This document shows positions 7,302-56,837 of a stretch of 64,000 nt of DNA, in pieces. Both the position numbers and the translations under genes were made by a program. Source of the DNA: Vampirovibrionales bacterium (GTDB lineage Bacteria; Cyanobacteriota; Vampirovibrionia; Vampirovibrionales; Vampirovibrionaceae); assembly GCA_016712355.1 (NCBI GenBank), contig JADJRF010000001.1, positions 23,286-87,285 of the forward strand, given 5' to 3'. Every line of letters begins with the position of its first letter. The stretch's first letter is position 1. Below the pieces are notes generated by a model. The model was not told the DNA's origin. It ran no database searches and worked only from the letters and a program-made list of their open reading frames with translations.

Positions 7302-7494
7302 CGGCTTTCTGCGCCAGATCGGGCGCGTGCGGATGCCGGCCTCGACCGTGTGCGCACGGTGTGGGTCGGCGGTTGTCGAAATGGCGATCCGGGAAGATGG
7401 CGCGGTCAAGGCGTACTGCCTGGCTTGCGTGGAGCAGATGAAAGAGGAAAGAGCGCAGAACAATGACCAAGAAATCCTATCTCACCGTAACTGA
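7291..7494 (+). CDS. Small zinc-ribbon protein
   Basis: ATG 7291, in frame with ORF 6952..7494; CARCG...CLAC pairs. Confidence 0.45.
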   Translation: METDGFLRQIGRVRMPASTVCARCGSAVVEMAIREDGAVKAYCLACVEQMKEERAQNNDQEILSHRN

Positions 7495-8884
7495 CCAGTT
7501 TTGCGGCGCGGGCGGCTCCAGTATCGGCGCGACCGCGGCTGGCGTAGAGCTTCGGCTGGCGCTCAACCACTGGCAACTTGCCATCGAGACGCACAACAGC
7601 AACTTTCCCAACGCCATGCACGACTGCACCGACATTTCGGCGTGCGATCCGCGTCGCTATCCATCGACGGACATCCTGATTACATCTCCAGAATGCACAA
7701 ATCACAGCCTGGCGAAAGGCAAACGCCGATTCAGCCAGCCCGATCTGTTCGGTGCGAACGTGCCCGACCCGGCAGAGGAGCGCAGCCGGGCGACCATGTG
7801 GGACGTGCCCAGATTTGCGGAGTATCACCGCTACAACGCCATCATTGTAGAGAACGTGGTCGATGCGCGGCACTGGGTCACGTGGGACGCATGGCTGCAC
7901 GCCATGCAGTTGTTGGGCTATGAGCATCAGATCGTCTTCTTCAACAGCATGTTTGCGTGGCCGACGCCGCAGTCGAGAGACCGCATGTACGTCATCTTCT
8001 CGCGCAAGGGCAATGCACGCCCTGATCTCGACTTCCACCCGGCTGCGCACTGCGAGACATGCGGCAAGACCGTCGAGAGCGTCCAGTCCTGGAAGCGTCA
8101 CGGTCAGCGGTGGGGCCGATACGGTGCGCAGTACGTCTATCGTTGTCCAATTTGCGCCGCCGAGGTCAAGCCGTTCTACAACCCCGCTGCATCTGCAATC
8201 GACTGGACGCTGCCAGCCACGCGCATTGGCGACCGCGACAAACCGCTCAAGGCCAAGACTCTGGAACGCATCCAGAGGGGACTGGACAAGTACGGGCGGC
8301 AAGACCTGATCGTTGCCAACTACACGCCTGGCTGGTCACGGCCAGCGAGCGATGCGCCATTCGGTACGATCACCACATACGACCATCACGCGTTGGTCGT
8401 GCAGTTGTCGTATGGCGGATCGAACAATAGGGCGCGAAGCGCGTCCGAACCGATGCCGACGCAGACGACCAGGCAAGACACGGCATTGATCATGCCCTAC
8501 TACAGCACTGGCGTCGCCAAACCGGCAAGCGAACCAGTTCCGACCGTAACCACAACCGACCGCCACGCATTGATTGTGCCGCCCTTCCTGCTCGGCTATT
8601 ACACGCGTGTTGCCGGCGTCCAAGCCGCTGTCAGCGGAATTGATGAGCCTATGCCCACGCAGAGCACGCAGCCGCGTCACTATCTGGTGCAACCAGGCGA
8701 TGTGTCATCTGTCGAGGATTGTGGATTCAGGATGTTGCGCCCGCACGAAATCAAGGCGGCGATGGCGTTCCCGACGGACTACATCGTGCGCGGGAACAAT
8801 CGTGATCAGGTGCGCCAGTACGGAAATGCAGTGACGCCGCCGATCATGCAGATGCTGATCGAACGTGTGGTGGCGGCGCTATGA
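7463..8884 (+). CDS. DNA (cytosine-5)-methyltransferase
   Basis: Motif I DQFCGAGG, motif IV TSPECTNHS, motif VI IIVENV, motif VIII QSRDRMYV, motif X GNAVTPP. Confidence 0.9.
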   Translation: MTKKSYLTVTDQFCGAGGSSIGATAAGVELRLALNHWQLAIETHNSNFPNAMHDCTDISACDPRRYPSTDILITSPECTNHSLAKGKRRFSQPDLFGANVPDPAEERSRATMWDVPRFAEYHRYNAIIVENVVDARHWVTWDAWLHAMQLLGYEHQIVFFNSMFAWPTPQSRDRMYVIFSRKGNARPDLDFHPAAHCETCGKTVESVQSWKRHGQRWGRYGAQYVYRCPICAAEVKPFYNPAASAIDWTLPATRIGDRDKPLKAKTLERIQRGLDKYGRQDLIVANYTPGWSRPASDAPFGTITTYDHHALVVQLSYGGSNNRARSASEPMPTQTTRQDTALIMPYYSTGVAKPASEPVPTVTTTDRHALIVPPFLLGYYTRVAGVQAAVSGIDEPMPTQSTQPRHYLVQPGDVSSVEDCGFRMLRPHEIKAAMAFPTDYIVRGNNRDQVRQYGNAVTPPIMQMLIERVVAAL

Positions 8885-10008: not shown

Positions 10009-10364
10009 GATTCGCACGCAGCCACGTTCGTTTTAAGCCGCATGTCACCAGCCGGCGTCTGGCCGCGGCGCGACGCCGGCTGGAACGACAGGCAATGGCA
10101 CTACCGTTGTTTGCCGATCAGATTCGCGCCGGCCAGCCTACGCCTGAAGAATCGGTGGCGGCGGCAGATCGCCAGACAAAGCGCCAATTCGACGCTCACC
10201 GCAAATACGAAGCCGAATCCTGGCTGAAGGGACGCCGGCTTTTGCGGCAGTTGCCGGCAGAACGCCGTGCGGAGATCATCGCAGCGTGGAACGCATCTGG
10301 CGTGCCAGCGCGCCCGGAGTATTTTCTGGACTTCCTTCGCAAAAAGTACGGACTCGCTGAATGA
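10005..10364 (+). CDS. Hypothetical basic protein
   Basis: ATGA overlap at 10005-10008, in frame with ORF 9741..10364. Confidence 0.5.
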   Translation: MRFARSHVRFKPHVTSRRLAAARRRLERQAMALPLFADQIRAGQPTPEESVAAADRQTKRQFDAHRKYEAESWLKGRRLLRQLPAERRAEIIAAWNASGVPARPEYFLDFLRKKYGLAE

Positions 10365-11008
10365 CCCACTCACTTACCATCCGACTCGGCAACCGCGACG
10401 ATCTCGACTGGGCGCAACGCATCGTTGAGAGCGACCACTACCTGCATCAGCGCGTAGACCCACGCGCACGCCCGATGGTGTACGTCCTCGACTACGACGC
10501 CGTACCGGTTGGTCTGGTCATGCTCGGCATCCCGCACGCGACGCGGTGCGGCGGATGGTGTGGCTATCCCGGCTTGCCGACGCAATGGCAGGTGGTCGAT
10601 TTGTGCCGCATTTGGATTGACCCTGGTTTGCAAGCAGGCGGTCGCTGGTGCGATCCGTACACCGTCCCCGGCTTCTACGACCGGCGCGGCATGTTTCGCC
10701 CGACTACGCCGACCTGGGCGATCAGCGAGGTGCTACAACGCGTGCAGGCTGACCGGGTGCGGTTGTGGCCGCCAGTCTACCTGGAGCAGCCGTATCATAT
10801 CGAGTTGGCAATCAGCTATCACGATCCGCAGTACCACCGCGGCACGATCTACAAGCATAGCCACGCCACGCCGATGTACCGGGACGCCAGCGGCAACCCG
10901 ATACCGGGATCGTCCGGCAAATACGGCTGGTGCTGGCGATTGCCCGCGCCGGCATGGGAGTGGGATAGCTTGACCGATGTCCGGTCACGACAGATAAGGA
11001 TGCTGTGA
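10361..11008 (+). CDS. Mom-like GNAT-fold acyltransferase (putative nucleobase-modifying)
   Basis: ESDHYLHQ...VGLVMLGIPHATR...VVDLCRIWI...HRGTIYKHSHATPMY parallels the HHxHH / vGRPvAR / Rl / G-x-x-Y-x-A-x-x-W layout of Mom/DUF4338-type GNATs. Recalled pattern, not searched. Confidence 0.45.
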   Translation: MTHSLTIRLGNRDDLDWAQRIVESDHYLHQRVDPRARPMVYVLDYDAVPVGLVMLGIPHATRCGGWCGYPGLPTQWQVVDLCRIWIDPGLQAGGRWCDPYTVPGFYDRRGMFRPTTPTWAISEVLQRVQADRVRLWPPVYLEQPYHIELAISYHDPQYHRGTIYKHSHATPMYRDASGNPIPGSSGKYGWCWRLPAPAWEWDSLTDVRSRQIRML

Positions 11009-12300
11009 TGCAAGGCATACAAGACCCGCTTGCCGCGCTGCAAGACACGGCGCGCATTATCAACGAGGAACCGTACAACCCGGACTGGTTCTTCATGTTC
11101 AGCGGTGGCAAAGACAGCAACGCCACCGTACAATCGGCATGGGTGTGCGTCAAGGAAGGGAGCGTGCAGGCGCCGGCGACGGCCACGATCCTGTTTGCCG
11201 ATACGCAGATGGAGTTTCACCAGTTTCTCGAAGAAGTAGACGACAAGGCGCAGACATTGGTAGCGGCGTGGGAGTCGCTTGGCATCAAGGCGCGATACGT
11301 AAAGGTTGCGCCGGTGTTGCAATCTGACTTCTGGGTGCGTCTGTTGGGGTACGGCTACGCCCCTCCGACAAAGGCGATGCGCTGGTGTACCGACCAACTC
11401 AAGATTCAGCCGGCGCGCAAGATGCGCAACGCCCTCAACCTGAACGACGCGCTCTTGATGGTCGGCGCACGATACGGCGAAAGCGCACGGCGCGACGAGT
11501 ACCTGTCATGCACGATGGGCGGCGAATGCGGGCCGGATGCGATGGCGCGCGTCAAGAGCAAGTTTCCGACTATGCTGCCCGTGGTCAACTGGCGCACTTG
11601 CGCCGTGTGGGACTTCCTGCAACTGATTGCGCCCTCCTACGGGCTAGATAACAGCCGGCTGCGCGCCATCTACGGGCCGGACGGCGATTTGCGTTACGGG
11701 TGTTGGTCGTGCCCGCTGGTCTTCAACGACCGCACAGCCAAGTACTGGGCGGAAACCGACCCGCTGACCGCTGAGCTTTTGACCTGGACAAACGCCAACC
11801 TACGGCCTGGGGGCGCAGCTTGGGCGTCAGTGAATCGTGAGCTATTTGAGGGGCAAGAAGCGCGCCTGTCGCTGGACTACTGTCGCCGGCTCTTTGGTGA
11901 GTTGACCGACATGCAAAATCGGCATGGGCGCACGCTGCTAAAAGAGTGGCAGATTGACGGTATCAAGACGCTGTGGATATGGCGAGAGCAAGCGCCAGAG
12001 GCAATGCGCGGCGTGATTGCGCAGGAGACGCTGCTCGACATGACGCCGAAACCGACACGCGTTCACATCTCTCAGTTTCCTTTGCGCACGGCCAGAGCGC
12101 TGTACGAAGCACCGCTATGGGAGGATTCGTACCACGGCGTTATCCAGCGCCATGCAGCGACACTGGTCGAATTGTCGCCGGGGGTATCGTGGAACTACCA
12201 ATCACAAGTTGGAAACGGACAGGACGCTGCAACGATTTGGGGTAACGCACAGGATCAGATTATCCGCGTGCACGGCGATGAAATCGAGAGGCTGAACTAG
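11005..12300 (+). CDS. DndC-like PP-loop ATPase (PAPS reductase family)
   Basis: PP-loop FSGGKDSNA, RWCTDQLKIQP, GARYGESARR, and Cys motifs YLSCTMGGECGPD and YGCWSCPLV, as in DndC. Unknown ~150-aa C-terminal extension. Confidence 0.8.
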   Translation: MMQGIQDPLAALQDTARIINEEPYNPDWFFMFSGGKDSNATVQSAWVCVKEGSVQAPATATILFADTQMEFHQFLEEVDDKAQTLVAAWESLGIKARYVKVAPVLQSDFWVRLLGYGYAPPTKAMRWCTDQLKIQPARKMRNALNLNDALLMVGARYGESARRDEYLSCTMGGECGPDAMARVKSKFPTMLPVVNWRTCAVWDFLQLIAPSYGLDNSRLRAIYGPDGDLRYGCWSCPLVFNDRTAKYWAETDPLTAELLTWTNANLRPGGAAWASVNRELFEGQEARLSLDYCRRLFGELTDMQNRHGRTLLKEWQIDGIKTLWIWREQAPEAMRGVIAQETLLDMTPKPTRVHISQFPLRTARALYEAPLWEDSYHGVIQRHAATLVELSPGVSWNYQSQVGNGQDAATIWGNAQDQIIRVHGDEIERLN

Positions 12301-12302
12301 CA

Positions 12303-12623
12303 ATGTGTTTCGAGCAACTGCACGAATCTTCCAAGCGTGGCGAATTATTGTTGGTGGACGGCGGTATGTGCCACTGGCATTTGCGACGCGACGGTCAGCT
12401 AACGATTAGGGAGATCATTGCGACGAAATCGGGAGCCGGTACGCAGATGCTCGATCTGCTGCGCGTCGTCGCTAGCGCGTCATGCATCGTTGCGAAGTGT
12501 CCCGCCGATCTTTCAGCGAATTCCTGGTATGCGCGCAAAGGGTTCTTTCTCGTCGCGACGGAGACGGCGAAATCGGGCAGACCGATCAACGTGTGGCACC
12601 TCGACTTATGCAACTCGATCTGA
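12303..12623 (+). CDS. Mini GNAT-like acetyltransferase-fold protein
   Basis: 106 aa. TKSGAGTQML fits the acetyl-CoA motif A (xxGxG/A), and the C-terminal SWYARKGFFLV resembles the FYxKxGF GNAT ending. Confidence 0.45.
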   Translation: MCFEQLHESSKRGELLLVDGGMCHWHLRRDGQLTIREIIATKSGAGTQMLDLLRVVASASCIVAKCPADLSANSWYARKGFFLVATETAKSGRPINVWHLDLCNSI

Positions 12624-13192
12624 TTGCCGGCCACTACCACTGCGACAATTGCGGGCAGGTTGTCGAGCATGTGCAGCGCACGCGCCGTTTTTGGCTGTGC
12701 GACGCGTGCTGGCAAGCCATCGTGCCGGCATACGACACGATCCCGACGCAGGACGGCAAGCGCACGGCTGAGTGGCTGGCAGAGTGGGCGCCAGTGCGTG
12801 AGCAAATCGGGAACTATTGGGGCTGGTATCACGACATGGAGAAACGGTACCCACCGCGTTACACCCCACCCCGCAAGCCGCTCGAATTGCACTACAAGCC
12901 GGTTGACGCCGACAGCCTCAATCCGCTGTGCGCGTGTGGCCGGCCACGCCAGCCAATGAGCTTCATGATCACTACGTCGCCTGGACTCTTTGGCGGCCCG
13001 TTTCGCAGCCATTGCGAAGTGTGCGAAGCAAAGTTGGCGGTCGAGAGCATCTTCAAGATGGCAGAGAAGATTCACCAAGACTGGAACGATGAAGACTGGC
13101 TGGAGTATTGCTGGCAGCATCGACGCGAGTTGTACGACGTGGGCGTGCTGCCGGACTACTGGTTTACGCTGAAAGCTGTGCAATTGCCATGA
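12608..13192 (+). CDS. Hypothetical Cys-rich protein; shares a C-terminal domain with the next gene
   Basis: ATG 12608, in frame with ORF 12482..13192; CDNCG...CDAC zinc pairs. Confidence 0.55.
   Translation: MQLDLIAGHYHCDNCGQVVEHVQRTRRFWLCDACWQAIVPAYDTIPTQDGKRTAEWLAEWAPVREQIGNYWGWYHDMEKRYPPRYTPPRKPLELHYKPVDADSLNPLCACGRPRQPMSFMITTSPGLFGGPFRSHCEVCEAKLAVESIFKMAEKIHQDWNDEDWLEYCWQHRRELYDVGVLPDYWFTLKAVQLP
13040..13178 (+). repeat. Direct repeat copy 1 (shared C-terminal domain)
   Basis: About 139 bp similar to 13627-13765 (offset 587 bp). Confidence 0.7.
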
Positions 13193-13791
13193 ACAACACT
13201 CTGACCAACGAGCAGCGCGCCGCCCGCCGCGCGAAAAGGAAAAACGGGAAGCTCATCAGGTCGATGCCGCTGTTTGCGGACGCACTCCGTCCTGATGGCG
13301 CAATGGCGTCATGGCTTACTACGCCAGAACAAGAATTGCCGGCTGTCGAGCGGAATCGGCAACAGGCGCGCGAATTTGGCGACCGTATGCGGGCGAAAGA
13401 GGAGAAAGAGCGACAGCAGGAAGCCGAGGAGAGAGCGAAGGCGATTGAAGGTAAGACGCCTGAGCAAATCGCCTTTTTGGAGAAAGGTCGTCAAGCCTAT
13501 CCGCCCTTCGGGGATTACGGCGCGACCTTCTGGCGCAAATCGCAGCAGCCAGGCTTCCTGGAAGCGCAAATGGAGAGAATGGCCGACCTGCAACGGCGCG
13601 GTGAGACGGTGCGCGCAAGAATAGCCGTCGAAGGCATCTTCAGGACAGCGGAGAAGACCCACCCGGACTGGGACGATGAAGACTGGCTGGAGCATTTTTG
13701 GCAGCATCGACGCGAGTTGTTCGATGCGGGCGTGCTGCCGGACTACTGGTTTACATTGAAAGCGAGGTTTGGAGATGTCGCAGTACGATAA
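13189..13791 (+). CDS. Hypothetical protein, C-terminal paralog of 12608..13192
   Basis: ATGA overlap. C-terminal IFRTAEKTHPDWDDEDWLEHFWQHRRELFDAGVLPDYWFTLKA matches the upstream gene. Confidence 0.55.
   Translation: MNNTLTNEQRAARRAKRKNGKLIRSMPLFADALRPDGAMASWLTTPEQELPAVERNRQQAREFGDRMRAKEEKERQQEAEERAKAIEGKTPEQIAFLEKGRQAYPPFGDYGATFWRKSQQPGFLEAQMERMADLQRRGETVRARIAVEGIFRTAEKTHPDWDDEDWLEHFWQHRRELFDAGVLPDYWFTLKARFGDVAVR
13627..13765 (+). repeat. Direct repeat copy 2 (shared C-terminal domain)
   Basis: See 13040-13178. Confidence 0.7.
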
Positions 13792-14008
13792 CCTGATTGG
13801 ACTTCGGTACAAGCAGCTTGTGCATGACTCCAAGAAAGGGATGGTCTGGCGCACGTTCGAGGTGCGCTCCATCGTGGATGGCGACCAGGCAGTGACACGC
13901 GTCTGGAGCCGGCGCCACCGCGTCTACGTCTACCAGATTACGCCAGCGGCTATCCTTGCTGACTCGCTAGAGAACAGCGAGATGTACAAAATTGTAAAAA
14001 AAGTGTAA
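13769..14008 (+). CDS. Hypothetical protein
   Basis: ORF overlapping the upstream gene end; last gene of its block. Confidence 0.5.
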   Translation: MEMSQYDNLIGLRYKQLVHDSKKGMVWRTFEVRSIVDGDQAVTRVWSRRHRVYVYQITPAAILADSLENSEMYKIVKKV

Positions 14009-14017
14009 AATCCTGAT

Positions 14018-14076
14018 AATTCAATTGAATTTACGTGGTTGCCGTATTGCAATTCAATTGAATTGTGTGGTATAAT
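14018..14076 (+). promoter_or_regulatory. Promoter with twin 14-bp palindromic operators
   Basis: AATTCAATTGAATT at 14018-14031 and 14051-14064. TTGCAA (14047-14052), 18-nt spacer, TGG-TATAAT (14071-14076). Confidence 0.65.
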
Positions 14077-14165
14077 CAGCTTATCACCAAGTGGTGAGAC
14101 GAAACCAAAAGGCAAAGCAAGAGCCGAGCCACTACCGACCGCAAGTGCGGTAAGGAGTCAGAACG

Positions 14166-21932: not shown

Positions 21933-21980
21933 TTGACAAAGTATACACCGTATGATAATTTATTCTCCTAAAGGCAATTG
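21933..21980 (+). promoter_or_regulatory. Putative promoter with GGCAATTG box
   Basis: TTGACA 21933-21938; GATAAT/TAATTT -10 candidates at 21954-21961; GGCAATTG 21973-21980. Confidence 0.45.
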
Positions 21981-22007
21981 ATGCAAGGTGATTCCAAAGG
22001 AGAATAT

Positions 22008-24113
22008 ATGCTTGTCGAAAGTGTGTTCGCGCAGTGGGAGAAGGCACGCAACGGCGAGATCGACGCTGTGGCGTGGAAAGAGTGGGCGATCAAGCTCTAC
22101 TTCGAGAGCGATTTACTGGCTGAACTTCAGGCGCTCAAAGTGGCGCAACTGAAGGAGTTGCTTGCCAGGCTGCTTACCGTGGCGCGTGGCAGCAAGAAGG
22201 CCGAAGTGGCCGATGAGGCATACAAGGCGATTTCCGGCGTGCTCACGGTGATGTCGCCGGTCGGTCTCGCCTACTCGTACAGCTACGACGATCACCGCAC
22301 AGGACAGGTAGAGGCAAAACGGCTGGCGCAAGTGCGCAAGTCTATCGAGGCGATTACCCCCGACGACATGGCCGCCTACGCAGCCCGATGCGCAGAGCGT
22401 GCTGCCGCACACACCGCTGCACTGACCGATCCCCAAACGCTGCAAGATTTTTCCGTCTTCCTGCGCAGCAAGGGCGTGGACGCGCTGACCGATGATCAAC
22501 TGGAGCGTTTCGACACCCTGATCTGGGAGCGCGACCAGGCTAACATCCGTGCTGAGCAGGAGCGGCGCGCCAAGATCGATCAGGTCGATTTGGGCGATGT
22601 CGAGTTGACCGTCACGCAGGAACGTCACACGCAGAAGGACGTGGACATCTGGATCGTGCGGCTCTCGACGCGCGTCGATGGCGACATCTACAAGCAGTTG
22701 GCCGAGGCCGCCGAGCGGTTGGGCGGCGGCTGGTCGCGTTACTCCAACGGCTTCCTGTTTTGGGAGAAAGAAGACGCCGAGACCTTTGCCGGCGTCAAGG
22801 ACGGCGACGTAAGCGCCGGCGACCGATGGGAACGCAATCGCCGGATGCGTGAGGAGCGAGCCGCAGATCGCCTGGCGCAGTACGCTATCCGCAAGGACGG
22901 CGCCGCCGCCGATGTGCTGGCGATGGATCGACTCACCAACACCGTGCGGCGCGCACGTATGGCGGCCAGCGCGGAAGCGGACGCACGCAGCGACCAGGCA
23001 ATGGCCGCTACGATCATGAGCATCGCCACGGCGCAAGCGAACGGTGATGCGTTGACGGTGCTTGCCAACGTGCGCAGCGCCGTGCAGGTTGCCGAGCTTC
23101 TCTATCTGCTGCGCCGCGCCATGATCGCCGGCGCAAAGGCACGCGGCGAGACCATCTCCTACAGCGACCCGGTGCGCTACGACGCTGCCGACATTCGCCA
23201 TGCGGAGTATCCCTGGCCGGCGTGGAACGAAGGCGATGCGCGCGAAGTGGCGACGCTGCTCAAGGGCAAGCGTGGCGCCGGCGATGCGCTCGCCGTGCTC
23301 AACAACATGATCAAGGGCGTCAGCAGCAGCGGCATGGTAACGGCCCGCACGAAGATGGGCGCCGACGCGATGGTAACGCTGGCCGGCATGTTTCCAGGGA
23401 TTAACAACTACTGGACGGAGGCAATACGGGCAAGCACGATCTCTTATCAGCGGCTGGAACGGATGGGGATCGACAACCTGCCGATCTTACGTCACGCACT
23501 GCGTGAGTTGCTGCCGCACGTAGTTGCGCCGGCGCAACCAGACCCCGTGACGGTGGCCGAACGTGCGCTGATCGGCGTGCGCATTCCCGGATTCTTCCCG
23601 ACGCCGGCTGATGTCGTCGCCAAGATGCTCGACTACGCTCAGGTCGAGCCGGGTATGCTGGTGCTGGAGCCATCCGCCGGCAAGGGCAATATCGTTACGC
23701 CGTTGCTCGATGCCGGAGCGAAGGTGATCGCGGTCGAGCACGCCTACACCCTGCTCCACATCTTGCGACTCAAGTATACCGCCCGCATCGTCATTGCCGA
23801 TGGTGATTTTTTGGAGATTCCAGCCAAGCGTTGGCGCCACACTCCGATAGATCGCGTCGTAATGAATCCTCCCTTCGAGGATGGGCAGGACATCTCGCAT
23901 GTCTGCCACGCCTACGACTTTCTGCGTGAAGGCGGGCGGTTGGTCGCGATCATGGGCGCGGGTGCGTTCTATCGAAGCGACAGTCGGGCGGTTGCGTTTC
24001 GGACGTGGCTGGAAGACGTAGGCGGTGAAGTGGTCGAGGATTTGCCGTCTGGCACCTTCTACCACGAGGCCGGTACGAACGTATCAACGAAGATGGTGTT
24101 GATCACCAAGTAG
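22008..24113 (+). CDS. Large protein with C-terminal N6-adenine DNA methyltransferase domain
   Basis: AAAGGAG SD then ATG 22008. C-terminal FFPTP (motif X), VLEPSAGKGNI (motif I), VVMNPPF (motif IV). About 500-aa N-terminal helical region of unknown function. Confidence 0.8.
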   Translation: MLVESVFAQWEKARNGEIDAVAWKEWAIKLYFESDLLAELQALKVAQLKELLARLLTVARGSKKAEVADEAYKAISGVLTVMSPVGLAYSYSYDDHRTGQVEAKRLAQVRKSIEAITPDDMAAYAARCAERAAAHTAALTDPQTLQDFSVFLRSKGVDALTDDQLERFDTLIWERDQANIRAEQERRAKIDQVDLGDVELTVTQERHTQKDVDIWIVRLSTRVDGDIYKQLAEAAERLGGGWSRYSNGFLFWEKEDAETFAGVKDGDVSAGDRWERNRRMREERAADRLAQYAIRKDGAAADVLAMDRLTNTVRRARMAASAEADARSDQAMAATIMSIATAQANGDALTVLANVRSAVQVAELLYLLRRAMIAGAKARGETISYSDPVRYDAADIRHAEYPWPAWNEGDAREVATLLKGKRGAGDALAVLNNMIKGVSSSGMVTARTKMGADAMVTLAGMFPGINNYWTEAIRASTISYQRLERMGIDNLPILRHALRELLPHVVAPAQPDPVTVAERALIGVRIPGFFPTPADVVAKMLDYAQVEPGMLVLEPSAGKGNIVTPLLDAGAKVIAVEHAYTLLHILRLKYTARIVIADGDFLEIPAKRWRHTPIDRVVMNPPFEDGQDISHVCHAYDFLREGGRLVAIMGAGAFYRSDSRAVAFRTWLEDVGGEVVEDLPSGTFYHEAGTNVSTKMVLITK

Positions 24114-41273: not shown

Positions 41274-42302
41274 GTGATCACCAAGCGCAAAGTCGCCATG
41301 CCGCCGCCGCGCCCTGGGCAGCACGGCGCCGAGATTATCAAGCGGCTGGAACGCAACGTCAACGGCAACCGCCGCGCGTGGCAGGTCTTCGCTGACTTTT
41401 GCGAGATTGCAGAGCGATGTCTGATCGACCAGCCAGCACACATCGAGAACGCTGCTGCCGGTTTGCCCGTTACGGAGAACGACGAGACGGTCGCCGTCTG
41501 GGAGAAGCTCTTTCAGTGGTACCCGAAGCACAGGGAAAATGACTGGCAGAACTTCACGGAGTGCTACATCCTGCTTGTGGACGCCGCCGACAACGCGCAG
41601 AAGATCGATTCTTCGTGGGACGTATTGGGCGAAGTTTTCATGGACTTTGGGGCGCCGAGCGCCTGGCACGGCCAGTTCTTCACGCCGTGGGTAGTCGCCA
41701 AGATGACCGCGCAGATAACCCACGACGACAGCCTGCTGCACACGCGCCTGCTCGAAGCGGCGCGGCGCGTCTCGAAAGCCGGCGGCGTGGACGGCGCGCT
41801 GCTCGACAGCATGGCGCTGCTGAGCCTGGGTGCGCCTGGGGAGAGTCTTCAAGCCAAACAGGGCGATTGGTTCAACCGCTGGTTTTTGCCGCGCGTGGCG
41901 CCCCACGTCGAGCCGGTGATGGTGTACGACTGCGCGTGCGGCAGCGGCGTCATGCTGATGGCAAGCGCCAGCCAACAGCCAACATGGGCGAATCAGTGGG
42001 GCTTGGTGCGCTACTACGGGCAGGACATCGACGCACAGTGCGTGCAGATGGCGCGCATCAACATGATGCTGCACGGGTTGAACGGATATGCGCTCAAGTG
42101 TGACCGCGCCCTGTTGCGCGGCAACTTGCGCAAGCAAGGGATCGACCCGGACGCGCTGGAAACGCTGCCCGTACTGGCGCCAATACAATCCGCCGAACAT
42201 TCACCGATATTGCCGGCGGCGCACACAAACGGCGGGACGCCGGCGCGCATCGATGTCGAGGTCAACTGGGCGAACGCAGCGCAGTTGGGTTTGTTTGCGT
42301 GA
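41274..42302 (+). CDS. HsdM/N6_Mtase-like protein lacking the catalytic NPPF/Y motif
   Basis: GQFFTP (motif X), VYDCACGSGVML (motif I), YGQDIDAQCVQMARINMMLHGL. The ORF ends ~70 aa later with no (N/D)PP(F/Y/W). Confidence 0.6.
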   Translation: MITKRKVAMPPPRPGQHGAEIIKRLERNVNGNRRAWQVFADFCEIAERCLIDQPAHIENAAAGLPVTENDETVAVWEKLFQWYPKHRENDWQNFTECYILLVDAADNAQKIDSSWDVLGEVFMDFGAPSAWHGQFFTPWVVAKMTAQITHDDSLLHTRLLEAARRVSKAGGVDGALLDSMALLSLGAPGESLQAKQGDWFNRWFLPRVAPHVEPVMVYDCACGSGVMLMASASQQPTWANQWGLVRYYGQDIDAQCVQMARINMMLHGLNGYALKCDRALLRGNLRKQGIDPDALETLPVLAPIQSAEHSPILPAAHTNGGTPARIDVEVNWANAAQLGLFA

Positions 42303-42439: not shown

Positions 42440-42841
42440 GTGAGCGAACAATTGGGAACACATTGGGAAAACTGTGCAACGGAAGGCGGCGAGGGGCATT
42501 ACGCGTGCGCGGTGGCCGAGATCGAGCGATTGCGCGCGCAGTTGCAGGCGCAAGCTCCGCAGCCTGGCGCCGTCTCGGTGTTGGCGTCGGACATTGTGTT
42601 TGGCGACGCTCAACCTACCTACGAGTTCGTACAGCACCCGGCGCACTACAACAGCCACCCGGCCGGCATTGAGTGCATTACGGTCATCGAGCCGATGAGC
42701 TTCAATGTCGGCACGGCGATTAAACACTTGTGGCGCGCCGGCCTGAAGCCAGGCGCCGACCACGTGCAGGACTTGCGCAAGGCGATCACCTATATCGAGT
42801 TCGAGATTGCGCGCATCGAGCGCGGCAAGGCCGGCGGCTGA
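42440..42841 (+). CDS. DUF3310-family phage protein
   Basis: HPAHYNSHPAGIECITVIE...NVGTAIKHLWRAGLK...DLRKAITYIEFEI matches the DUF3310 signature. Confidence 0.7.
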   Translation: MSEQLGTHWENCATEGGEGHYACAVAEIERLRAQLQAQAPQPGAVSVLASDIVFGDAQPTYEFVQHPAHYNSHPAGIECITVIEPMSFNVGTAIKHLWRAGLKPGADHVQDLRKAITYIEFEIARIERGKAGG

Positions 42842-44643
42842 TGACCGTGCGCCTCATTGCCGGCAGTGCGCACGACCTGAGCGCACTGCCGGATGGTTCG
42901 ATCCATCTTGCTGCGTTTTCGCCGCCCTATCTAGGGCTGCGCAAGTACCACGGCGATCAGGGCGTTGCGTGGCCGGCGGTGACATACGCACCGATGGTCA
43001 ATACGCCCGCCGTCACCGTGCCGGCGATGACCTGTCCGCTTGGCAACGAAGCAACCATCGAAGCATACATCGGTCATCTTGTGCTGGTGCAGCGCGAAGT
43101 GTGGCGCGTGCTGCGCGATGACGGTGTATGCTTTGTGAATTTGGGGGACAGCTACGCCAACGACGATAAGTGGGGCGGAACAACAAGCGGAAAACACACA
43201 TTGGCTTTACACGGTGAGCCTGTAGGGAGAGTCCGCCGACATACCGGATTGAAACCCAAAGACTTGACGCTTGTGCCGGCGCGCTTTGCGTTGGCGATGC
43301 AGGCGGAGGGCTGGTATATCCGCAACGACATCATTTGGGCGAAAGGCGTCAGTTTCAACCCGGTTTACTCCGGCTCGACGCTCCCTATGTCGCGCACGGA
43401 TGCCTTCACCCAGTCGCACGAGTACGTGTGGTTGCTTGCCAAGCAGGAACGCTATTTCTTCGACCTGTACGCCGTCAAGGAAGCGCCGGCCAGCTACACG
43501 CGTAAAGGCGGCGCCGCGCCCTACACGGCCAACGGCAGCACAACCAACGGCGTCGGCTCCAAAAGCCTGCATCAGATGAGCGTCGCCGGGCGCACGCCGC
43601 GCACGGTCTGGACGATCAACCCCACCGGCTATCGCGGTGCGCATTTTGCCGTGTGGCCGGAAGAATTGGTCGAGAAGTTAGTGCGCGTGGGCACTTCCGC
43701 CAAAGGCGTGTGTCCGACGTGCGGCGCGCCGTGGAAACGCGTCGTCCAGAAGCAGCCGGCATCCTCACGCACCGTCAACGGCAGCGGGCCGCACGGCGAG
43801 CACGGCTTCATCGGCTCCAGCCGCGTCGATGATCCGCTGGAGTACAGCACGTTCGGCTGGATTCCCACCTGCAACTGCTATTTTGGCGGCGATTATCGTC
43901 CCGACGATTTCGAGGTCGTGTGGTCGCCCACCGGCGAGCAGAGCGAAGACGATCCTTCTCTGGAGACCGGGCGCGCCGGCTGGAACCGCACGCGTGCCGG
44001 CAACGAAGGCCGGCACCCGATGACGCGTTACGAGCAGCGCCACTACGCTGACCAGTTGCGCAGATCGCCCCACCGCGCCGAGATGAAAACCGAAGCCGGC
44101 GCAGCCGCGTTCGCTCACTATTTGCGCACCGACCGTGCTGGCGCCCGCCCTGTGCCGGTTGCGCTTTTGGATCGTTGGATCGACGCCGGTTGGCTGACGC
44201 GTGTCGAGGTTCCTTTTCATGTGCCGGCGTTGCTGGATGATCCCGAACTGCCGGAAGACGCCATTGCGCCGGCGGTGTGCGCGCGGTGTGATGGCAGCGG
44301 CGTGGATGCGTTGCCGATGTTTGGCGACGCGCTGCCGTGCCCGGCGTGCGGCGGCCAGCCCGTAACCGGCGGCAACGATGCGTGGCGACGCTGGAGAGCG
44401 GAAGCCGACGAAGCGCAAGCGAACCGGCAATTGGTGCTTGACCGCATTGCGGCGCTTGGCAATCTACCGGTTGCGCCGGCGGTGGTGCTCGACGTGTTCT
44501 CCGGTTCCGGTACAACCGGCGCGGTGGCGACGCAGCTTGGGCGCGACTACATCGGCATCGACATCAACCCAGGTTATCACGCGTTGGCCGAGGAACGCAT
44601 CGGCGCGACGCAGATCGATCTATTCGCAGGAGAAACACCGTGA
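42841..44643 (+). CDS. Beta-class N4/N6 DNA methyltransferase with large Cys-rich insertion
   Basis: ATGA-type overlap. Motif IV AFSPPY near the N-terminus, motif I VLDVFSGSGTTGAVA at the C-terminus. CPTCG and CARCDGSG...CPACGG zinc motifs lie between them. Confidence 0.85.
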   Translation: MTVRLIAGSAHDLSALPDGSIHLAAFSPPYLGLRKYHGDQGVAWPAVTYAPMVNTPAVTVPAMTCPLGNEATIEAYIGHLVLVQREVWRVLRDDGVCFVNLGDSYANDDKWGGTTSGKHTLALHGEPVGRVRRHTGLKPKDLTLVPARFALAMQAEGWYIRNDIIWAKGVSFNPVYSGSTLPMSRTDAFTQSHEYVWLLAKQERYFFDLYAVKEAPASYTRKGGAAPYTANGSTTNGVGSKSLHQMSVAGRTPRTVWTINPTGYRGAHFAVWPEELVEKLVRVGTSAKGVCPTCGAPWKRVVQKQPASSRTVNGSGPHGEHGFIGSSRVDDPLEYSTFGWIPTCNCYFGGDYRPDDFEVVWSPTGEQSEDDPSLETGRAGWNRTRAGNEGRHPMTRYEQRHYADQLRRSPHRAEMKTEAGAAAFAHYLRTDRAGARPVPVALLDRWIDAGWLTRVEVPFHVPALLDDPELPEDAIAPAVCARCDGSGVDALPMFGDALPCPACGGQPVTGGNDAWRRWRAEADEAQANRQLVLDRIAALGNLPVAPAVVLDVFSGSGTTGAVATQLGRDYIGIDINPGYHALAEERIGATQIDLFAGETP

Positions 44644-51696: not shown

Positions 51697-52176
51697 ATGA
51701 ATACTCCGTTGACTTTTGGAAAACACAAGGGGATGACGCCAGGGGCGCTGAAGCGCATCGATCCTGACTACCTGTCGTGGGGGGCTGCCAATTTGCAGTC
51801 TCCCACGTGGCGCGCCGCGTTCCAGCAGGCGCTGGACACCATCACCGACGAGGACAAGGCGTGGGCGATGGTGCGCTCTGGCGGCGGCGAGATCGATTTC
51901 GAGGAGGCGCTGATCGTCGTGCGCGACGAGCGCCTGGAGGCTGAGGAGAATGACCGCAAGCTGGCCGCGTGCGAAGCGGCGCTGCGCGAGATCGCCGCGA
52001 AGTATGCGCCGATCTTCGGCAAGACGGTCGATCAAGTGGCCGGCGTCATCCACCGCCACGAAATGGGGTGGGAGGACGAGCCGGCGAAGTTTTTCAGCAG
52101 CACGGAAGCGTACAACAACTTCCGTGCCATGATGACCGAACACGATGCAGCCGTTTCCGCCATCTGGCGGGCATAG
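51697..52176 (+). CDS. DUF3820-like N-terminal domain protein
   Basis: LTFGKHKGMTPGALKRIDPDYLSWG matches the FGKHKG...Y(L)xW motif. Confidence 0.55.
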   Translation: MNTPLTFGKHKGMTPGALKRIDPDYLSWGAANLQSPTWRAAFQQALDTITDEDKAWAMVRSGGGEIDFEEALIVVRDERLEAEENDRKLAACEAALREIAAKYAPIFGKTVDQVAGVIHRHEMGWEDEPAKFFSSTEAYNNFRAMMTEHDAAVSAIWRA

Positions 52177-52186
52177 GGAGAAAAAC

Positions 52187-53296
52187 ATGATCGGGCAAGC
52201 ATACTTCCAGGGGAAATACGTCGAAGACATGGCCGGCATGTACATGGCCGCCATCGTCGCCAAGCTCAACGGCATCGCCGTGGGTGCACCCGGCTACGGC
52301 AAGACCGACGTTGCCGAGTCGATGTGTCTCGACATCTTCGGAAACGGCGGGTTCGGCTTCTTCCGCATCGACCCATCCACGATGCCGGAGGAACTCAAGG
52401 GCGCCGTGGACATCGAGAAGCTCCTAAGCACAGACCCTGCCTTCCAGCGCAAGCTGAAGGGCAGCATGTTCGACGCCGACCTGCACGCCCACATCGTGGA
52501 TGAGATCGGGCGCGGGTCTGGCGTCATCCTCAACATCCTTTTGCTGGCGCTCAACCGCAAAGACGTGACCGATCCGGCGCCAGTGCTCGCCACCTCCAAC
52601 TTCATGCCCAAAGGCGTCGAGTTTGAGGCGCTGCTCGACCGCTTCGCACTTTGGAAGTGGGTGGCGCCTACGAACGACCTGGACACCGCCGCGATGGTGC
52701 GTGCGCAGCTTTTGGGTCTCGGTGGGCGGCTGCACGTCGAGATGGCGCTGCCGGCGCTGACCGACCTGCAAGACGTGTGGGCGGCGCGTCCTGGCGACAA
52801 GGCCGCCGACGCGATTGTCGATCTGATCGCCAGCCTGGAGACCGAGATCGCCAACGAGGGGTTGATGGCGAATCCCCGCCGGCGCACGGCCTGGTCGCGG
52901 TTGCTCTACCGCATGGGCGTCTTCGGCACCGGGCAGGCGGATTTCAGCGCACTGCCGAACGAAGCCGTCACCGCGCTGCGGTGGGCGTGGCCGGCCAAGA
53001 CGGAAGCGGAAGCTACGACCTGGCAGACGCTGGTCGGCGGGCTGGTCGATCCGATCCAGACCTTGATCGACAATGCAATGGCGGAAGTGGCGAAAGCTGC
53101 CAACGCCGCCATCGAGGAACTGGAAGCCGGCCGCAAGCAGATTGCCGAGGCAGCCAACGCAGTCTCGCAAGCGGTGATGAAGTTCGAGCGCGACGCCCGC
53201 GCCCTGGGCGTCAACGACCCACGCGTCGATGAAGCGAAAGCGATCATGATGGCGTGGACGACCAATGTCGTGCGCAAGCAGCGCATCGAGCGATAG
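52187..53296 (+). CDS. MoxR-like AAA+ ATPase
   Basis: ATG 52187. Walker A VGAPGYGKTDVA, Walker B HIVDEIGRGS. Confidence 0.75.
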   Translation: MIGQAYFQGKYVEDMAGMYMAAIVAKLNGIAVGAPGYGKTDVAESMCLDIFGNGGFGFFRIDPSTMPEELKGAVDIEKLLSTDPAFQRKLKGSMFDADLHAHIVDEIGRGSGVILNILLLALNRKDVTDPAPVLATSNFMPKGVEFEALLDRFALWKWVAPTNDLDTAAMVRAQLLGLGGRLHVEMALPALTDLQDVWAARPGDKAADAIVDLIASLETEIANEGLMANPRRRTAWSRLLYRMGVFGTGQADFSALPNEAVTALRWAWPAKTEAEATTWQTLVGGLVDPIQTLIDNAMAEVAKAANAAIEELEAGRKQIAEAANAVSQAVMKFERDARALGVNDPRVDEAKAIMMAWTTNVVRKQRIER

Positions 53297-53304
53297 GAGC
53301 CGCT

Positions 53305-54822
53305 ATGACTCAGGTATCCCTTCTACCCGCCAAGCCCGCCACCAAGTTCGGCGTCACCGACCGGGCATTTGGCCGGCTTGCCAAGATGGACGTAGCGCAA
53401 GCGCCAGCCAGCGTTGTCGAAAGCGACCTGGCCGGCGACACGTTTGCCACGGTCTACCGCGACGCGGCGACGCTGGAAGCAGCGCCCGACGGACGCGAAG
53501 TCAACAAGACTCTGCTCGACTGGATGCGCCAGTCCGGGCAGTGGAACGGGTTGATCGACACGGCGCGCGGCGATGTGATGGCGTCCTTGACCGCCAGCCA
53601 GGTGCTGTGGGAGTACCTGCGCACCGACGAGGCAACCAAGAGCGCGCTGGACGCGCAAGCGCAAGCGGACGCCGCCCGCGAGGAAGCCGACAATCTCAAC
53701 AGCAGCGCACAGGCAGCCGACCACGCCGCGGATGCGCTGGAACAGTCCGGCAACCAGCCTGACGCCGATGCGCTGCGGCAACAGGCACAGGCACAACGCC
53801 AGCAGGCGCAGGAAGCCGCACAGCAGGCACAGGCGGCGCAGCAGGCAGCGAATGCCAGCGCCGAGAAAGCCGCCGGCTCCAAGATGACTTCGGCGCTGAT
53901 GAGTTCGGCGGTTGCCGAAGCGCAGGACAAAGCCGAGGAGATGGTCGCAGTTGGCGCCGGCTTCGGGCGCGGCAAAGGCGAGGTGACGATGGGCAACATC
54001 GGACGGGCACAGGCTGCCATGCAGCACCTGTCCGACAAGGTGCGCCGCGTCGCCAAACTCGCCGGGCGTTTTCGCGGTGTGGGCTTCGAGGCGCGGCGTA
54101 ACATGATCAAGCGCGGCGAGGAACCCGCCGACCTGGAGTACACGCAGGACTTCGGGCGGATGTTCCCGGCCGAGCTTGCGTTGCTGAGCCAGCACACGGC
54201 GCCGCTCAATCGCCTACGCGTGCTGCAATGGGCAGACGCGGGTCTGGCCGGCTGGAAGCTGGTCGAGCGCGAAAAAGAGCGCGGCCCGTTTGTGGGCGCG
54301 GTCGATGTGTCCGGCTCGATGACGACGAGCGACCGCCGCGCGTTCACGCGCGAGGAGATCGGCAAGGCGGTTGCCCTGGGCGTCGCGCAGGTTGCGCAAG
54401 CGGAGAATCGCCCGTACCGTTTATTCAGCTTTAGCAGCGGGAAAGATGCCCTGATCGAGTGCGACAGCACGCAGGGCTGGCCGGAACACCTGACCTGGGC
54501 GGATGCTGCGATGCACGGCGGCACCGACTTCGACATGGCGCTGGCGAACGCGCTGGCGCACCTCGACGCAATGGGCGACGATGGGCACCGCGCCGACTTG
54601 CTCTTTGTGAGCGATGGCGATGCAACGGTGGCGACAGCGACCGAAGATGCGTGGGCGGCGTTCAAGGCCAAGACCGGAGCGCGCCTGATCTATGTCGCCG
54701 TGGCCGGCGTGCGGCGCAGCTACGACCAGTTGGAACGGCTGGCCGACATGGTGATCGACGTGTCTGATCTGAGCGTGGAAGCCGGCGACGCGCTGGCGCA
54801 GGAAGTCAGTCTGTTGGTGTGA
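53305..54822 (+). CDS. VWA-domain protein (MIDAS) partner of MoxR ATPase
   Basis: ATG 53305. MIDAS GAVDVSGSM...GGTDF...FVSDGD; Q/A-rich coiled linker. Confidence 0.75.
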   Translation: MTQVSLLPAKPATKFGVTDRAFGRLAKMDVAQAPASVVESDLAGDTFATVYRDAATLEAAPDGREVNKTLLDWMRQSGQWNGLIDTARGDVMASLTASQVLWEYLRTDEATKSALDAQAQADAAREEADNLNSSAQAADHAADALEQSGNQPDADALRQQAQAQRQQAQEAAQQAQAAQQAANASAEKAAGSKMTSALMSSAVAEAQDKAEEMVAVGAGFGRGKGEVTMGNIGRAQAAMQHLSDKVRRVAKLAGRFRGVGFEARRNMIKRGEEPADLEYTQDFGRMFPAELALLSQHTAPLNRLRVLQWADAGLAGWKLVEREKERGPFVGAVDVSGSMTTSDRRAFTREEIGKAVALGVAQVAQAENRPYRLFSFSSGKDALIECDSTQGWPEHLTWADAAMHGGTDFDMALANALAHLDAMGDDGHRADLLFVSDGDATVATATEDAWAAFKAKTGARLIYVAVAGVRRSYDQLERLADMVIDVSDLSVEAGDALAQEVSLLV

Positions 54823-55353: not shown

Positions 55354-55806
55354 ATGCCTGAGTACACGTTTCCTGTCGCCTACCTGATTGACGAAGAACT
55401 GGACAGCCGGTTTGCCGGCAAGGAAGGCGATTTGGCGTGGCTGCGCCAGCATCTGCGCGATGCTTCGTGCGTCGTCTTCAACGCCCCGCGCCCGCTGCGG
55501 TACGAGTACAGCGACAGCAGCGACGAGTGCGGCCGGCAGATACCTGGATTGCCGACCGGTTTCTTTGCGGCGGCGGTGTGGCCTATGCGCGACGCGTGGA
55601 ATGCCCGCTGCGTCAAAAGCAACCACGAAGACAAGGCTTGCGTGCTGCGCCTGGTAACGCAAGCGCAGGCAAGGCAGATGGTCATTGACGATCTGCCCGA
55701 TAAATACCGGGAGACCTGGCTGGCAAACGGGCTGGTCGATGCGCATTGGCGGGCGTCGTTTGCCAATCGGTTCGGCGGTACGGAAACTGACGTGGTGACG
55801 CCGTGA
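55354..55806 (+). CDS. Hypothetical protein
   Basis: ORF; GTGA overlap with the next gene. Confidence 0.5.
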
Positions 55807-56837
55807 AGACCCCCAAGACGCACTACATCGCACCATCGACGCCGCGCGTCCCCGGCGCTATCCACCACTGCGCGTGTGGGCAAGACGCGCGTTACGTGCC
55901 GGCGACAGAAGACGCCGCGCAAGTCACGTGCGGCGCGTGTGCGCGTGTCCTCGACAGCAAGCACGCCCGCACCAAGACCAGCGCGTTTGGCGTGAGCCGG
56001 CGGGAACGGCACGACGCGTCTGCGTTCTACGGGCGCGCCATTTACGGCGACGCCGCGCCGAGCACGCCGCAAAACGGCGTGGAAGCCCCAGAAACGGCGC
56101 TGGAGGGCTGGATCGATAAAGTATACCTCGATGACGCTCGACGCATGACGGCGACCCCACAGGGCGGCGTAGCGTTGGCGTTTACGTCGCCGCCGTACAA
56201 CGTCGGCAAAGAGTACGACGCCGATCTGTCGTTTGACGACTATCGCCAGTTGCTGCGCGATGTGGCCGCCGAGGTGTACCGTGTGTTGATGCCGGGCGGT
56301 CGCTATGTGGTCAACGTCGCCAACCTGGGACGTAAGCCTTACATCCCTTTGCACGCGATGATCTGGCAGGACATGCAGGCGACGGGCTGGCTGCCGATGG
56401 GTGAGATCATCTGGCGGAAGGCGAAGGGCGCCGGCGGTAGTTGTGCGTGGGGAAGCTGGCGCAGCGCACGCGCCCCGCGCTTGCGCGACGTACATGAATA
56501 CCTGCTCGTCTTTGCCAAAGAGCAGTACGGGCGCGCCGCCAAAGGCGTGTCGGACATCGGGCGCGACGAGTTTATGAACTCTACGCTGTCAGTCTGGGAG
56601 ATCGCGCCGGAGTCGGCCAGGCGCGTCGGGCACCCGGCGCCGTTTCCGCTGGCGCTGGCTGAGCGGGTGATTCGGCTCTACAGCTATCGCGGCGATGTCG
56701 TGCTTGACCCGTTTGCCGGCAGCGGCACGACCCTGGTCGCCGCCAAGCGCACAGGCCGGCACTACGTCGGCTACGACATCATGCCGGAATATGTGGCGCT
56801 GGCAGAAAGTCGCCTCAATCGCACAACTGTGCTATAA
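55803..56837 (+). CDS. Beta-class N4/N6 DNA methyltransferase
   Basis: Motif [12 protein letters not shown], then motif [16 protein letters not shown] at the C-terminus. N-terminal CACG...CGAC zinc motif. Confidence 0.85.

Follow-up and report, generated by a model that had tools for sequence, protein, structure and literature searches.

Mom-like, DndC-like and mini-GNAT genes side by side in a phage-like element: probably separate modules of a mosaic anti-restriction island

Introduction

The Mom protein of phage Mu moves glycine, acting alone, from Gly-tRNA-Gly onto N6 of deoxyadenosine (dA) in double-stranded DNA, with a later rearrangement of the product (Silva et al. 2026, PMC13219725). 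The modification that Mu Mom leaves is N6-carbamoylmethyl-dA; residues H58, Y59, R111, S124, D149, R151 and Y159 are important to its activity, and a helix-turn-helix (HTH)-like insertion at about residues 175-209 is essential (PMC13219725). For phosphorothioate-based defence, a Vibrio phage was found to have escaped Dnd via a two-gene segment that includes a PAPS-reductase domain (PAPS, 3'-phosphoadenosine 5'-phosphosulfate) fused to a Dam methylase (Piel et al., bioRxiv 10.1101/2021.05.05.442762), and phage PAPS reductases have been discussed as anti-defence candidates (PMC13551039). DUF6610 is known as DpdA4, a subfamily of 7-deazaguanine DNA transglycosylases (Hutinet et al. 2023, PMC10516641). 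Here we analysed a 64-kb window, that is, the whole stretch of 64,000 nucleotides from contig JADJRF010000001.1, in which a Mom-like GNAT acyltransferase, a DndC-like PP-loop enzyme and a very small GNAT ("mini-GNAT") are encoded by three adjacent genes. A sequence-only reading of this DNA had proposed that the trio forms one cassette that activates a DNA position and then acylates it. Our comparison indicates that the three are probably separate, individually mobile modules of DNA modification or counter-defence that lie side by side in a methyltransferase-rich early block, and the whole is best read as a mosaic anti-restriction island.

Results

Genes 1 to 3 and their junctions

All three open reading frames (ORFs) on the plus strand were present where the sequence-only reading had placed them. 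Gene 1 (10361-11008, plus strand, ATG start, 215 aa) encodes the Mom-like GNAT; gene 2 (plus strand, 11005-12300 from a GTG, 431 aa, or 11008-12300 from an ATG, 430 aa) encodes the DndC-like PP-loop enzyme; and gene 3 (12303-12623, plus strand, 106 aa) encodes the mini-GNAT. At 45-97% protein identity, 312 homologues were counted for gene 1, 56 for gene 2 and 640+ for gene 3. These many homologues, together with strongly conserved motifs (HY, GIPHAT, RIW and GTIY in gene 1; SGGKDS, RWCTD and GCWSC in gene 2; GAG and WY.RRGF in gene 3), mark the three as real genes and not chance ORFs. The motifs that had been quoted earlier were all recovered, invariant or nearly so within their families. Apparently conserved minus-strand ORFs over genes 1 and 3 were considered as well and rejected, since they only mirror, in antisense, the conservation of the genes on the plus strand.

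The junction between genes 1 and 2 reads CTGTGATG and offers two starts for gene 2, the GTG at 11005 (4-nt overlap with gene 1) and the ATG at 11008 (1-nt overlap, TGATG). The ATG appears to be the likelier start, since AAGGA lies 7 nt upstream of it and a product of 430 aa has the length of the homologues P0121 and P0122. Genes 1 and 2 had been said to overlap through an ATGA; the overlap itself stands but the ATGA does not belong there, as it is found at the junction between the upstream ORF and gene 1, where the stop codon of the former (10362-10364) overlaps the Mom-like start. Gene 3 does begin 2 nt past the stop of gene 2, as had been described. Scanning the 7.4-13.8 kb block for promoters and terminators revealed no convincing operon boundary inside it.

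The three genes are mostly found apart in related loci

We then compared gene neighbourhoods across related loci. Mom-like clusters were deduplicated at 95% and counted when at least 1.4 kb was available on each side, which left 24 informative clusters. A DndC-like gene was missing from within about 6 kb in 18 of these, adjacent in four and nearby in two. Loci retrieved through the DndC-like protein (L001-L004, L027-L032 and L034-L044) held no Mom-like gene. The relative position of the two genes also varied, the DndC-like gene lying downstream of the Mom-like gene in the window and in L010 and upstream of it in L013, L079 and L082. At the level of DNA, blastn matched L075, L011 and L012 to the window across 10361-11008 only, and the synteny shared with L010, L073 and L074, whose DndC-like protein is 97% identical, ended at 12296, the DndC-like stop codon, before gene 3. 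The more distant locus L130 (about 80% protein identity) showed the order C5 methyltransferase, Mom-like gene, three other genes, DndC-like gene, mini-GNAT. For the mini-GNAT, 26 of 28 clusters lacked a DndC-like gene, and both exceptions were the window and L130. Co-occurrence of the trio had been suggested earlier as a check, and these data revealed the Mom-like, DndC-like and mini-GNAT genes mostly apart. A single cassette that activates and then acylates is not supported by genes that are not conserved together and vary in order; further points against it are that Mu Mom needs no partner enzyme and that the conserved partner of gene 3 is DUF6610, as described below.

The most frequent neighbour of the Mom-like gene was in fact another gene. 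Of the 24 Mom-like clusters, 7 had in their vicinity a homologue of the C5 cytosine DNA methyltransferase encoded at 7463-8884 on the plus strand (PHROG 116, E 3e-63), which forms a co-directional block with genes 1-3, versus 6 for the DndC-like gene, and in L130 the C5 methyltransferase is directly upstream of the Mom-like gene and overlaps it. Overlapping starts are general in these compact phage blocks, as illustrated by L027-L031, where the genes that the DndC-like starts overlap upstream are unrelated. Tight packing and overlapping stop and start codons in phage early regions are no sign of a shared pathway, and comparative synteny is needed to recognise one.

Several observations nevertheless weigh against a set of fully independent modules, and most of them would fit a two-enzyme pathway in which the DndC-like enzyme adenylates and perhaps thiolates a DNA position that the Mom-like protein, possibly together with the mini-GNAT, then acylates. 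In the window, gene 1 overlaps gene 2 and 2 nt lie between gene 2 and gene 3, an arrangement compatible with translational coupling. A DndC-like gene was near the Mom-like gene in 6 of 24 loci versus 0 of 24 comparable loci with the mini-GNAT only (Fisher p = 0.02). The DndC-like genes that adjoin Mom-like genes, in four of the 24 clusters and in both orders, belong to two subfamilies (about 640 versus about 150-170 bits against the A2 profile), so that some functional synergy is possible. The Mom-like clade lacks the HTH-like insertion that is essential in Mu Mom, as well as R151 (see below); DNA may therefore not be its target, or it may depend on a partner for binding to DNA, a part that the second enzyme could play. 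The anti-Dnd precedent, moreover, is a two-gene segment whose PAPS domain sits in a different, fused protein. We read the enrichment of DndC-like genes as co-residence in anti-restriction islands, yet it leaves a low likelihood that the two enzymes cooperate. The two-enzyme pathway itself appears very improbable given the 18 clusters without a DndC-like gene, the independently found DndC-like loci without a Mom-like gene, the three unrelated genes that separate the two in L130, the movement of the Mom-like gene as a single-gene unit, the self-sufficiency of Mu Mom (PMC13219725) and the generality of overlapping starts in phage blocks. A broader form of cooperation, in which the Mom-like GNAT and the adjacent DndC-like enzyme, with or without the mini-GNAT, jointly install an undescribed DNA adduct (e.g. 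an acylated or aminoacylated thio-modified position), has a slim chance of being correct; it would explain why two DndC subfamilies are repeatedly found next to Mom-like genes.

Gene 1 is a predicted divergent Mom-family GNAT

The product of gene 1 (10361-11008) is predicted, from profile comparison and a structural model, to be a divergent GNAT acyltransferase of the Mom family. The window protein itself had no Pfam match at E<=1 and matched PHROG 1384 ("Mom-like") weakly (E 0.003). Among 20 close relatives, 16 matched the Pfam family Mom, PF25680 (best E 4.2e-6). When the gene 1 family was compared by hhalign with A6, an alignment of eight Mom homologues from cultured phages, the two matched over 123 columns with 94.8% probability and E 5.5e-8; comparison with the single Mu Mom sequence was weak (E 0.16), and significance was reached solely with the Mom alignment. 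A profile of the family searched against PDB sequences returned a spurious sigma-factor match alone and did not retrieve Mom. Since the link to Mom is invisible to a sequence search of the PDB, profile-profile and fold comparison were needed. An AlphaFold2 (AF2) model of gene 1 had a predicted local distance difference test score (pLDDT) of 79.7. Foldseek returned 118 PDB matches for it at E<=1e-3, and among the matches listed 50 of 50 belonged to the GNAT superfamily; Mu Mom (8bv8_B) was the second PDB match (E 1.1e-5, template modelling score, TM, 0.48/0.51), and a Salmonella phage Mom ranked third in BFVD. The earlier recognition of a Mom-like GNAT was supported by Pfam matches of relatives, by hhalign and by fold search, and profile and structure comparison did not place gene 1 outside the GNAT fold.

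Conservation at the positions on which Mu Mom depends was then followed through the hhalign map, which pairs H26/Y27 of gene 1 with H58/Y59, R83 with R111, T118 with S124, D155 with D149 and Y164 with Y159. Residues H26, Y27, R83, D155 and Y164 are invariant in the gene 1 family, and the S124 position is occupied by the invariant T118. Mu Mom R151 aligns with the variable Q157 and is not conserved; it is likewise missing from Mom-like proteins of actinobacterial phages. Neither hhalign nor the AF2 model showed in gene 1 the HTH-like insertion (Mom ~175-209, including W181). The alignment ends at about residue 180 of Mom, beyond which 36 residues remain in gene 1 versus 61 in Mom, and the model has a short loop alone between the last strands. 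The gene 1 family also has an insertion of its own, about 22 residues long, in the stretch from R83 to T118, and it conserves a loop, PHATRCxGWWGYPGLPTQWQ.

A tblastn search with the gene 1 protein returned no match among 50,697 cultured phage genomes. The Mom-like clade was present on contigs binned to Chloroflexota metagenome-assembled genomes (MAGs) of Anaerolineae and Caldilineaceae (L139, L141-L144), and the other Mom-like matches came mostly from metagenomes of activated-sludge or wastewater type. A separate observation concerns actinobacterial phages, in which Mom-like genes annotated as "acetyltransferase" lie directly 3' of a gene for a ParB-like nuclease domain (Microbacterium phage Pickles13, L135, 395-1128; Arthrobacter phage Sicarius2, L136, 1-964). 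In Pickles13 a tRNA-Gly(ccc) gene comes after the Mom-like gene, a placement in line with the published finding that Mom uses Gly-tRNA.

Gene 2 is a predicted phage-clade DndC-like enzyme

Gene 2 is predicted to encode a DndC-like PP-loop ATP-pyrophosphatase of a phage clade and not a DndC orthologue. It matched PAPS_reduct (PF01507, E 2.7e-7), TIGR03183 DndC (E 3e-30; 105.5 bits, below the equivalog cutoff of 290.4) and the PADLOC DndC model (E 9e-33), with BrxP and SspD scoring lower. The TIGR03183 match covered residues 27-223 on model positions 15-215 of 447 and the PADLOC match residues 26-244 only, so the DndC-like call is supported for the N-terminal domain. The SGGKDS PP-loop (S33-S38) is invariant in the family, as are RWCTD, G-C-W-S-C and six cysteines (C128, C169, C175, C199, C233 and C236) that, judged by their conservation, could ligate an Fe-S cluster. 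The canonical DndC motif ECPLV..SCGG is absent; a motif S-C-x5-E-C-G is found further upstream instead and is common to gene 2 and to the Pseudomonas, Thermus and L013 phage copies. Its E-C-G portion may recall the catalytic ECGLH motif of CysH.

The C-terminal extension noticed in the sequence-only reading was confirmed. In the AF2 model (pLDDT 84.6), approximately the last 100 residues form a confidently predicted, lineage-specific alpha+beta domain, and residues ~280-330 align loosely with the middle region of DndC. Fold search matched the N-domain alone, to CysH (PAPS reductase), LarE, TtuA and GMP synthetase. The C-terminal 182 aa had no match among PDB sequences, and the family profile gave a marginal match to FAD synthase alone in the same database. 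The C-terminal domain PF20306 is precomputed for several canonical DndC matches and not for the gene 2 family. That Dnd partners are missing also held up: among the approximately 30 window ORFs scanned, which included all of at least 475 aa and some of the small, DndE-sized ones, there was no cysteine desulfurase, DndD-like ATPase or Ssp-like partner. In cultured phages the DndC-like genes adjoin C5 or Dam methyltransferases, without a Mom-like gene. A conserved partner directly upstream of DndC-like genes was considered on account of the overlaps in L027-L031 and rejected, the upstream genes being unrelated to one another and to Mom. We also observed a second, shorter gene with a PAPS_reduct domain beside DndC-like genes of the same subfamily, downstream in L027 (5001-7452) and upstream with an overlap in L029 (4015-6365).

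The fold matches of gene 2 include sulfur transferases for tRNA or cofactors (TtuA, LarE), which raises the question of whether the targets are DNA at all. The two GNATs might instead have proteins, small molecules or charged tRNA as substrates of acetylation, and gene 2 might be an auxiliary gene of sulfur metabolism or act as an RNA thiolase; the GNAT fold does not allow the substrate to be predicted (PMC13219725), PHROGs lists the PAPS reductases of phages under auxiliary metabolism, and the E-C-G of gene 2 may, as said, recall CysH. However, the best profile matches are specifically to Mom and DndC and not to CysH or generic GNATs, and fusions of PAPS domains with methyltransferases exist. 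Both the block and the element are also dense in DNA methyltransferases, and in related loci the genes lie repeatedly beside C5 methyltransferases and DpdA4-like genes. We consider targets other than DNA unlikely.

Gene 3 is a predicted mini-GNAT whose usual partner is DUF6610

Gene 3 (12303-12623) appears from its family to be a true mini-GNAT. It had no direct Pfam match, and its 640+ homologues were likewise without Pfam matches. A search of 1.84 billion representatives with the family profile gave 390 matches. Of 31 distant relatives, 27 matched Acetyltransf_1/7/10 (best E 5e-19), and five long ones were fusions with DUF6610; the GNAT call made earlier for gene 3 was borne out through these Pfam matches. 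A PDB profile search placed acetyltransferases at the top, weakly (E 0.44), at the GAG..WY.RGF motif. Residues G44 and G46, in the glycine loop of beta4-alpha3 (motif A), and the WY..GF motif are invariant in the family.

The neighbourhood of this family is dominated by DUF6610 (PF20314), which was present in 20 of 28 informative mini-GNAT clusters and adjacent in 18. Single-ORF fusions of mini-GNAT and DUF6610 occur in L054 (5965-7053) and L056 (5998-7062), and further pairs lie at L126:4001-4956, L122:4001-5455 and L005:4927-6014; in L122-L125 a QueT-like gene is placed between the two. The DUF6610 hidden Markov model (HMM) had no match in the whole 64-kb window. The ORF downstream of gene 3 was examined as a divergent DUF6610 and rejected, as neither Pfam nor a custom HMM supported it. 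Gene 3 is an orphan here, without its usual partner. In the literature examined, we found no description of the mini-GNAT/DUF6610 pairing and no function for it.

Since the window and L130 (about 80% protein identity) keep the order DndC-like gene, mini-GNAT although the Mom-like gene has relocated, we considered that these two might form a unit, with the Mom-like gene independent and the GNAT acylating a thiolated or adenylated intermediate or the DndC-like protein. The nearest relatives, L010, L073 and L074, with their 97% identical DndC-like protein, lack the mini-GNAT, as do all 12 other DndC-like clusters (0/12); among mini-GNAT clusters, 26 of 28 are without a DndC-like gene and 20 of 28 have DUF6610. 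A two-gene unit of this kind is improbable.

The element and its remaining genes

The window represents a phage-like element, probably of Chloroflexota; this host phylum is suggested by the presence of the Mom-like clade on Chloroflexota MAG contigs. Its 64 kb carry at least five genes for DNA methyltransferases, of C5, N6, N6/N4 and large multidomain types, those beyond the C5 gene at 7463-8884 lying at 21978-24113, 41274-42302, 42730-44643 and 55803-56837. So many methyltransferases in a single element are an unusually large commitment to modifying DNA. Other genes of the window encode recombinases, an FtsK-like ATPase, DnaB helicase, a sliding clamp and ThyX. No tRNA genes were found in the window, and no near-identical DNA was found among cultured phages.

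Three further features of the window were observed. Downstream of gene 3, the ORFs at 12608-13192 and ~13200-13791 share a C-terminal motif of about 45 residues, ..AEK.H.DW.DEDWLE..WQHRREL.D.GVLPDYWFTLKA; the former also has CxxC pairs, and both are without a Pfam or PHROG match. An AT-rich intergenic gap at 13900-14160 contains, at 14047-14076, the best sigma-70-like promoter match of the region (TTGCAA-18-TATAAT, with a TG upstream), and probably marks where the next transcription unit begins after the block of modification genes. At 52145-54822 lie a gene for a MoxR-like AAA+ ATPase and, after it, one for a protein with a vWA domain, the combination that typifies MoxR-vWA systems.

Discussion

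From the observed folds, family relationships, motif conservation and missing conserved linkage we infer the substrates and biological roles of separate modules as follows. By analogy with Mu Mom, gene 1 would most likely act alone. It would take the aminoacyl group of a charged tRNA, attach it to a base of the phage's double-stranded DNA and thereby block restriction enzymes; possibly, the clade transfers another amino acid or attacks another base than Mu Mom does. Gene 2 would most likely be a phage counter to phosphorothioate-based (Dnd/Ssp-type) defence. It has a canonical PP-loop that would serve ATP-dependent adenylation and cysteines suited to an Fe-S cluster, and a plausible route would be sulfur modification of the phage DNA with sulfur-donor proteins of the host. 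Gene 3 would be a small N-acyltransferase of acyl-CoA type that elsewhere works beside a DpdA4-like 7-deazaguanine transglycosylase.

If the Mom-like clade is active, tRNA-dependent DNA aminoacylation would extend to uncultured, probably Chloroflexota, phages. Its minimal architecture without the HTH-like insertion could then reveal the parts of Mom that recognition of DNA and tRNA requires, or could lead to an adduct of another kind. The phage DndC-like clade, with its rearranged cysteines and a C-terminal domain of its own, is a tractable candidate for phage evasion of phosphorothioate-based defence. The pairing of the mini-GNAT with a DpdA4-like protein may point to an acylation step, so far undescribed, in the 7-deazaguanine modification of DNA.

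Compared with known systems, the parts are moderately novel and the proposed three-gene cassette is not. Gene 3 resembles small GNATs (Acetyltransf_1/7/10, Acetyltransf_CG) in its glycine loop and WY.RGF motif, and differs from them in its length of only 106 aa. Gene 2 shares with DndC and SspD the SGGKDS PP-loop, RWCTD, G-C-W-(S/T)-C and the PAPS-reductase/ATP-pyrophosphatase fold. Like other phage copies it stands alone near DNA methyltransferases, and unlike the Vibrio phage anti-Dnd protein it has no methylase fusion. The closest known counterpart of gene 1 is Mu Mom (PF25680, 8bv8), at about 21% identity across the aligned core. The two have in common the GNAT fold, the motifs W..HY, WGY, (L/C)R(M/I)W and (S/T)xAIS, the aspartate that ends beta-5, and G..Y. 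Unlike for Mu Mom, no com-like regulator was identified for gene 1; like Mu Mom, it is encoded by a phage-type element, near DNA methyltransferases and as a single-gene module.

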